Positions 4,940-5,082 of a stretch of DNA of 5,793 bases are shown here, piece after piece (the stretch's first letter is position 1; each line of letters opens with the position of its first letter). Below the pieces are notes generated by a model that made no database searches, had not been told where the DNA came from, and worked only from the letters and a program-made list of their open reading frames with translations. This stretch comes from Escherichia coli. Lineage in GTDB: Bacteria > Pseudomonadota > Gammaproteobacteria > Enterobacterales > Enterobacteriaceae. Where the stretch lies: assembly GCF_003334255.1 (NCBI RefSeq), contig NZ_QOWU01000103.1; one strand, 5' to 3'. Both the position numbers and the translations under genes were made by a program.

Positions 4940-5082
4940 TGCATAGTTATGCAGGCCCCTAAAAACGATTCTGACGCGTTTTTTGTGTTTTCCCTAGGTT
5001 TATCTTGTCTTTTTGAGTTTTTTGCGTCAGAAAGCGATTGAGAGCGTTTTAGAGGGTACGTACAAGAGGAGTTATGGTAAAT
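4940..5082. other. cer-like Xer (XerC/XerD) site-specific recombination site for plasmid multimer resolution: core 5055-5082 plus upstream accessory region with an ARG-box-like palindrome at 4940-4953
   Basis: Core GGTACGTACAA-GAGGAG-TTATGGTAAAT versus ColE1 cer GGTGCGTACAA-TTAAGGGA-TTATGGTAAAT as I recall it: one mismatch in the XerC arm, an identical XerD arm, and a 6-bp central region. The palindrome TGCATAGTTATGCA sits about 110 bp upstream, where cer has its ArgR box. Confidence 0.7.

Follow-up and report, generated by a model that had tools for sequence, protein, structure and literature searches.

Does a cer-like recombination site whose arms are separated by 6 bp, as at psi and dif, rather than by the 8 bp of ColE1 cer, still belong with the ArgR/PepA-type resolution sites of small plasmids, or does the shorter spacing signal a different behaviour? 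A preliminary description of such a site contrasted the 6-bp central region with the 8 bp of cer, likened it to psi/dif spacing, and pointed out that spacer length affects the order of strand exchange and the dependence on accessory proteins. The site lies in a 5793-base window (by which we mean the whole stretch of DNA that was analysed), which covers one whole circular plasmid of 5716 bp and runs on for 77 bases past its start; positions 1–77 are identical to 5717–5793, where the sequence wraps around the circle. The answer that we propose, from sequence comparison, is that positions 4887–5082 (approximately) very probably serve a small multicopy plasmid of ColE2/ColE3 type as its multimer resolution site, and that the site would be dependent on XerC/XerD and on ArgR/PepA.

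The plasmid matches more than 12 E. coli and Salmonella records at identities of at least 99.8% (e.g. NZ_AP022820.1, CP077345.1), and the matching records are classed as mobilizable, their types being MOBQ and, for the replicon, ColE2-like. Its annotated gene content (Table 1) includes no recombinase gene of its own. The Xer site occupies the non-coding stretch between rep and a divergent gene encoding a 316-aa protein (ending at 4686, minus strand), and is absent from the features of the plasmid records that we examined; the PLSDB gene table covers protein-coding and resistance genes only. The 316-aa protein (3736–4686, minus strand) is cargo with weak similarity to SAM-dependent methyltransferases (C-terminal part of CmoA, E 2e-6, far below the cut-off; Pfam Spermine_synth, E 0.0014), and its gene adjoins one for a LysE/RhtB-family amino-acid exporter (3157–3729, minus strand). 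On the rep side, a candidate rep promoter (TCGACA-17-TAGTGT, 5104–5132) starts 22 bp past the XerD arm and is followed on its 3' side by a 17-nt inverted repeat in the rep leader (5147–5208), which is probably the target of a ColE2-type antisense RNAI. A sub-threshold match to the Rfam family PK-repBA (5153–5201) overlaps this repeat.

Table 1. Positions of the resolution site, its putative parts and the annotated plasmid genes within the window
Feature	Position	Strand	Remarks
Accessory sequence of ArgR/PepA type, XerC side of core	4887–5054	+	Left limit is where homology to related sites begins
ARG-box-like palindrome TGCATAGTTATGCA, presumed ArgR hexamer site	4940–4953		Assigned from spacing and conservation
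Inverted repeat, left arm TTCTGACGC, 9 bp	4969–4977	+	100% complementary to right arm
Inverted repeat, right arm GCGTCAGAA, 9 bp	5024–5032	+	
Possible Pcer-like hexamers, TTGAGA-17 bp-TACAAG	5038–5066	+	Own hexamer scan; -10 overlaps inner end of XerC arm; uncertain
XerC-binding arm GGTACGTACAA	5055–5065	+	One base off ColE1 cer; same arm in pRS218 site
Central region GAGGAG, 6 bp, presumed place of strand exchange	5066–5071	+	
XerD-binding arm TTATGGTAAAT	5072–5082	+	Identical to ColE1 cer and CloDF13
rep	ATG at 5239, crossing record start		Annotated gene
Other annotated genes			TraD-like, MobA/MobL, LysE-family exporter, two hypothetical proteins
ColE2-type origin sequence GAGACCAGATAACAAGCCTTATCAGATAACAGCGCC	451–486 (about)		3' of rep stop codon

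The core, GGTACGTACAA GAGGAG TTATGGTAAAT, spans the 28 bp from 5055 to 5082. We compared it with reference cores taken from public sequence records, namely ColE1 cer (GGTGCGTACAA-TTAAGGGA-TTATGGTAAAT, with an 8-bp central region), CloDF13 (GGTACCGATAA-GGGATG-TTATGGTAAAT, 6 bp) and pSC101 psi (GGTGCGCGCAA-GATCCA-TTATGTTAAAC, 6 bp). These records bear out the earlier reading of the arms, according to which the XerD arm equals that of cer and the XerC arm is one base off, the single difference being an A for G at position 4. They equally bear out the central region of 6 bp (GAGGAG) against 8 bp in cer, and the 6-bp parse scores best among 6-, 7- and 8-bp parses of the core. When the cer core with a 6-bp gap was sought at up to three mismatches, the window gave one match, with a single mismatch, while dinucleotide shuffles of the window gave none (0/200). 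The XerD arm is invariant in all 17 of the aligned related sites. A second XerD-arm-like 11-mer, TAATGTTAAAT at 2574, has no XerC arm upstream and was set aside as a chance occurrence. Position 4 of the XerC arm (window 5058) is polymorphic among plasmids that are otherwise more than 99.8% identical, with A in the window and G, as in cer, in NZ_AP022820.1 and NZ_CP133872.1; the difference from cer is thus not fixed within the plasmid lineage. A full-text literature search for the XerC arm string returned unrelated papers only.

The preliminary description had also placed an ARG-box-like palindrome about 110 bp upstream of the core. The palindrome is present, and starts 115 bp before the XerC arm, compared with 115 bp in CloDF13 and 113 bp in the ColE1 record. 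Its match to the general ARG-box consensus (4 mismatches, equal to the box of cer) is no evidence for an ARG box when taken alone, since 22 other places in the window match that consensus as well or better. At a limit of three mismatches the general consensus misses the palindrome altogether and finds 6 other places, against 3.25 expected. The pattern of the family itself, TGMATNNNNATKCA, is found at this one place in the window, with 0.04 matches expected per strand (a second match is the same palindrome read on the opposite strand), and a box of the TGMATNNNNATKCA type is kept in almost all of the related sites taken from plasmid records. It is the combination of a unique family pattern, a cer-like distance from the core and conservation among relatives that makes the ARG box credible. 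In the homologous ColE3 sequence an ArgR site has been marked at the corresponding box (PMC11724359 Sup file 1).

From the ARG box to the XerD arm the window aligns throughout with ColE1 cer, CloDF13 parB, ColE3 and the ColE2-type sites, an alignment that bears out the earlier proposal of a cer-like Xer site with accessory architecture of the presumed ArgR/PepA type; homology to the IncF-borne copies and to a hybrid site in CP027641.1 begins at window position 4887. Between the ARG box and the core, T-tracts at 4979–5023 are phased at 9.5–10 bp, with a power that none of 1000 shuffles reached, in agreement with the phased A-T tracts described for cer-like sites (PMC2831885). The accessory sequence also contains a 9-bp inverted repeat. 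When 17 related sites are compared, its arms still pair in 88% of cells, as against 32–47% for slid controls. There is no covariation in these 17 sites, a covariation score as high as that observed being reached by 376 of 500 shuffles. The repeat is a conserved pair of DNA motifs and not an RNA helix.

The traits expected of cer-like ArgR/PepA sites are thus found together in the window: the two arms with a 6-bp centre, an ARG box in the range of 113–115 bp, a homologous and phased accessory sequence, and a single non-coding copy on a small multicopy plasmid lacking a recombinase. The standard mechanism for such plasmids (PMC11724359, PMC5357621, PMC2699498) suggests how the site would work. 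XerC and XerD would bind the 28-bp core, an ArgR hexamer would bind the predicted ARG box 115 bp upstream of the XerC arm, and PepA would bind the flanking, intrinsically bent accessory DNA, although PepA binding is unpredictable from sequence and its contacts here are putative. On a supercoiled dimer carrying two directly repeated sites, the accessory sequences would interwrap around ArgR and PepA, and this interwrapping would restrict recombination to the resolution of dimers to monomers. The first pair of strands would then be exchanged by XerC where its arm meets GAGGAG. Known sites show two ways of completing the Holliday junction so formed, either of which may apply here: at psi XerD makes the second strand exchange, whereas cer and mwr leave it to host processes that are independent of Xer. 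Central-region length does not settle the matter, since mwr has 6 bp yet stops at the Holliday junction like cer; it also needs ArgR and PepA (PMC2699498).

Two cloned 6-bp sites allow these expectations to be narrowed. The site of pRS218, GGTACGTACAA CGGGAG TTATGGTAAAT with an ArgR-type accessory sequence, recombined in the wild type and in an ftsK mutant, failed to do so in an xerC mutant and had intermediate activity in a pepA mutant (Fournes et al., PMC11724359); we confirmed its sequence and position in CP007150 (position 19971). The site of pIGRW12 is FtsK-independent and PepA-dependent (PMC11724359). By analogy with the tested homologues, XerC dependence, FtsK independence and intermediate activity without PepA may be expected of the site in the window, although its GAGGAG and the CGGGAG that was assayed are unlike in the two bases adjoining the XerC cleavage point. 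In the papers examined we found no report on ArgR dependence of the ColE2-type subfamily.

Is a central region of 6 bp then unusual? Among the previously characterised plasmid sites it is present in five of seven, namely ColA, ColE3, pJHCMW1, CloDF13 and pSC101, with 7 bp in NTP16 and 8 bp in ColE1 only (PMC11724359 supplement). Fournes et al. 2025 (PMC11724359) report 185 unique enterobacterial sites; in their catalogue we counted 13 entries of 30 bp and 27 of 29 bp, so that by subtraction about 145 are of 28 bp. An independent sample came from a scan that took a single genome for each bacterial species and sought an ARG-like box with TTATGGTAAAT 103–133 bp beyond it. Of its 97 unique matches, the 89 with a good XerC arm form the counted set of ArgR-type sites. 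These comprise 55 sites with 6 bp, 25 with 7 bp and 9 with 8 bp, and the supposed departure of the 6-bp centre from the cer family disappears: 6 bp is the usual state of the cer-like family, and the 8 bp of ColE1 is the minority.

The same 89 sites point to the constraint that accompanies this variation. Of the 55 sites with a 6-bp centre, 46 have their ARG box at 115 bp from the XerC arm; the corresponding figure is 114 bp for 24 of the 25 sites with 7 bp and for all nine with 8 bp. The distance from ARG box to XerD arm is 132, 132 and 133 bp for 6-, 7- and 8-bp sites, respectively. Measured from the box to the core's dyad centre, the distance is 128.5–129 bp whatever the length of the central region, a descriptive figure since the sites are phylogenetically non-independent. 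Given this constant distance, the predicted geometry of the complex is conserved across central-region lengths. Sites of 28, 29 and 30 bp are all able to recombine in a manner dependent on accessory sequences (Fournes et al. 2025, PMC11724359), and ColA, ColE3, CloDF13 and pJHCMW1 combine 6 bp with ArgR-type accessory sequences (PMC11724359).

A stretch of 166 bases around the site has its homologues in 1274 records of plasmids in PLSDB. Among the carriers are colicin plasmids, small plasmids of Col156/ColE2 type and some 400 large IncF plasmids. Homologous sites also occur on plasmids with unrelated ColE1-type replicons, and the module is therefore independent of the rep gene. We aligned some twenty related stretches covering a range of identities, with 17 sites entering the alignment used for conservation and covariation; identities to reference sites were measured over a 153-bp site and amount to 85.7% for ColE3-CA38, 85.8% for pRS218 and 63.8% for ColE1 cer. 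The ColE2-type core is GG(T/G)(A/G)CGTACAA followed by a 6-bp central region and TTATGGTAAAT, the central region being CGGGAG (the commonest among the sites examined), CAGGAG, GGGGAG, CGGGAA or GAGGAG. The exact GAGGAG allele is missing from the site catalogue of PMC11724359; a dozen or more public plasmid records, and one IncF plasmid, carry it without change.

Several of these records are of interest in themselves. About 400 conjugative IncF plasmids carry a ColE2-like remnant consisting of the resolution site and a rep region without the equivalent of window 5163–5355 (e.g. NZ_LS992181.1, NZ_CP035478.1, pRS218); in NZ_LS992181.1 the core and its immediate flanks, including GAGGAG, are identical to the window over 66 bp. 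The 127-kb IncF plasmid CP027641.1 contains a natural hybrid site (33012–33564, reverse strand), in which a ColE2-type accessory sequence and the XerC arm GGTACGTACAA are followed by the ColE1-type TTAAGGGA and a cer-type right flank, an arrangement such as a Xer crossover between sites of these two types would be expected to leave. NZ_CP133872.1 (17158 bp) is a head-to-tail trimer of the plasmid with three copies of the site. While this could hint at imperfect resolution, an artefact of long-read assembly seems more likely as the three copies differ slightly (Rep and LysE protein accessions differ, and some genes are uncalled). Finally, enterobacterial cer-like sites occur on short, often low-coverage contigs labelled Streptococcus, Streptomyces, Rhizobium, Bacillus and others, including a 721-bp Rhizobium wenxiniae contig, and one such site has the exact core of the window; small enteric plasmids or vectors have probably contaminated these assemblies.

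The existence of several alleles raises the possibility that differences in the central region have been selected as a code of recombinational isolation. The idea derives from the location of the first two central positions, which adjoin the XerC cleavage point, where heterology might block Xer-mediated fusion of related co-resident plasmids. Alternatively, the Pcer-like hexamers might become active in plasmid dimers, with transcription running on into the control region of rep some 20 bp downstream, which if true would couple multimer state to replication. We consider this pair of proposals unlikely, and found no positive evidence for isolation code or dimer-fired promoter in the data examined. 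The core differs from that of pRS218 at 2 of 28 bases, which is below the divergence of roughly 14% for the whole 153-bp site. At the place homologous to the hexamers ColE1 has TGAACG-15 bp-TACAAT, in keeping with the 15-bp spacer reported for Pcer (PMC5935869), while the -10 of the window is without the final T. A standard, stricter sigma-70 scan of 4690–5300 gave no promoter-like site.

A second possibility is that the 6-bp centre makes the site behave like dif, or like an artificial 6-bp cer hybrid, in which case it would be activated by FtsK or independent of accessory sequences and could fuse plasmids. FtsK-dependent recombination has been shown for 28-bp sites only (PMC11724359), and the pRS218 homologue resembles psi, and differs from ColE1 and pIGRW12, in the intermediate activity that it keeps in a pepA mutant. 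However, that homologue recombines normally in an ftsK mutant (PMC11724359), and the ArgR-type accessory sequence of the window is complete, conserved and canonically spaced. Accessory-less 28-bp sites are almost confined to large replicons in the published survey, in which all sites of small plasmids have an accessory sequence (PMC11724359). CloDF13, ColA, mwr and pIGRW12 likewise combine 6 bp with ArgR-type accessory sequences, and the two of these for which the papers examined give tests, mwr and pIGRW12, depend on accessory proteins. We therefore regard dif-like behaviour as very unlikely. The 6 bp might be taken as a pointer in this direction, a reading that is not supported: mwr stops at the junction, the pIGRW12 and pRS218 sites are FtsK-independent, and a central region of this length thus carries no implication of psi/dif-like behaviour.

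It might also be supposed that the site is a decayed, disused relic, kept only because it is linked to the control region of rep, which begins about 20 bp downstream. The site does lie just upstream of the candidate rep promoter at 5104–5132, the GAGGAG allele itself is known from sequence alone, and the pPCP plasmids of Yersinia provide a precedent in the form of inactive sites beside ArgR-type accessory sequences (PMC11724359 Sup file 2). However, both arms are intact, the XerD arm being the one that is invariant in 17/17 sites and the XerC arm being that of the functional pRS218 site, and the ARG box, the spacing and the phasing of the T-tracts have all been kept. The same module is found beside unrelated replicons, and the plasmid has no recombinase gene able to replace a Xer site. 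To our minds a relic is likewise very unlikely.

We give next to no weight to the last reading, in which the conserved block would act chiefly at the RNA level (for instance as an Rcd-like checkpoint RNA, or as the leader of rep mRNA) with the Xer-like arms secondary, because, while ColE1 cer contains the promoter Pcer driving the 70-nt Rcd RNA (PMC2831885, PMC5935869) and TTGAGA-17-TACAAG stands at the position homologous to Pcer, an Rfam scan of the whole window at E ≤ 1 found nothing at the site, RNAalifold on the 17 related sites gave no conserved fold (-2.4 kcal/mol, covariation term -0.06), the 9-bp inverted repeat shows no covariation, the -10 has no final T and the standard promoter scan is empty, and an Rcd RNA, which the site may or may not encode, would in any case add to a recombination site and not replace its recombination role.

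The preferred reading, a Xer multimer resolution site with ArgR/PepA-type accessory sequences, has two practical consequences. For annotation, 4887–5082 can be labelled as a ColE2/ColE3-type Xer multimer resolution site. For the scanning of other plasmids, the lesson is that the 8 bp of ColE1 is the exception among cer-like sites, and that a central region of 6 bp should not be flagged. If GAGGAG behaved unlike CGGGAG, this would bear on the effects of central-region sequence on XerC catalysis, but nothing here suggests that it does.

Comparison with known systems places the site as follows. The 28-bp length and 6-bp central region are shared with pSC101 psi and with dif. However, psi uses ArcA/PepA, and both psi and dif have the XerD arm TTATGTTAAA(T/C). 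The alignment with cer, psi and ColE2-family sites that had been called for succeeds for cer and for the ColE2/ColE3 sites, while blastn of the window against the pSC101 psi region found no similarity. A scan for ArcA boxes by consensus was non-discriminating, since psi itself scored no better than the window, and it is the homology search that counts here. A dif site has no accessory sequence and needs FtsK (PMC11724359); against a dif-type assignment, which calls for 28 bp, no accessory sequence and a large replicon, the window has a full ArgR-type accessory sequence on a 5.7-kb replicon.

The resemblance to ColE1 cer extends to the XerD arm, the XerC arm bar one base, the ARG box, the phased T-tracts, the inverted repeat of the accessory sequence and the -10-like hexamer over the XerC arm, whereas the 8-bp centre TTAAGGGA of cer, an overall identity of 64% and a distance from ARG box to XerC arm of 113–114 bp, as opposed to 115 bp, set the two apart; the Rcd checkpoint is documented for cer only. 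CloDF13 parB, ColA, pJHCMW1 mwr and pIGRW12 share the ArgR-type accessory sequence, the 6-bp centre and the XerD arm TTATGGTAAAT, but have other XerC arms and centres and belong to ColE1-type or other replicons. The xrs of pRS218, the copy on an IncF virulence plasmid, has both arms identical to those of the window, a 6-bp centre and an ArgR-type accessory sequence (85.8% identity), and differs in two central bases and in its setting, a 114-kb conjugative plasmid in which it forms part of a ColE2-like remnant with a shortened rep region.

Within the ColE2 group, PMC6856555 credits Hiraga et al. 1994 with the description of a cer-like site on plasmids related to ColE2. ColE2-like MOBQ4 plasmids are already reported to have a cer-like site, and only the GAGGAG allele is uncatalogued. 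The position upstream of rep is common to the window and to its Col156/ColE2-type relatives, the ColE3 sequence being taken from a replicon-region record. The site of ColE3-CA38 departs from that of the window in its centre (CGGGAG for GAGGAG), in position 4 of the XerC arm (G for A) and in scattered substitutions of the accessory sequence, and agrees with it in the 6-bp centre, the XerD arm, the position of the ARG box and 85.7% of bases over 153 bp.
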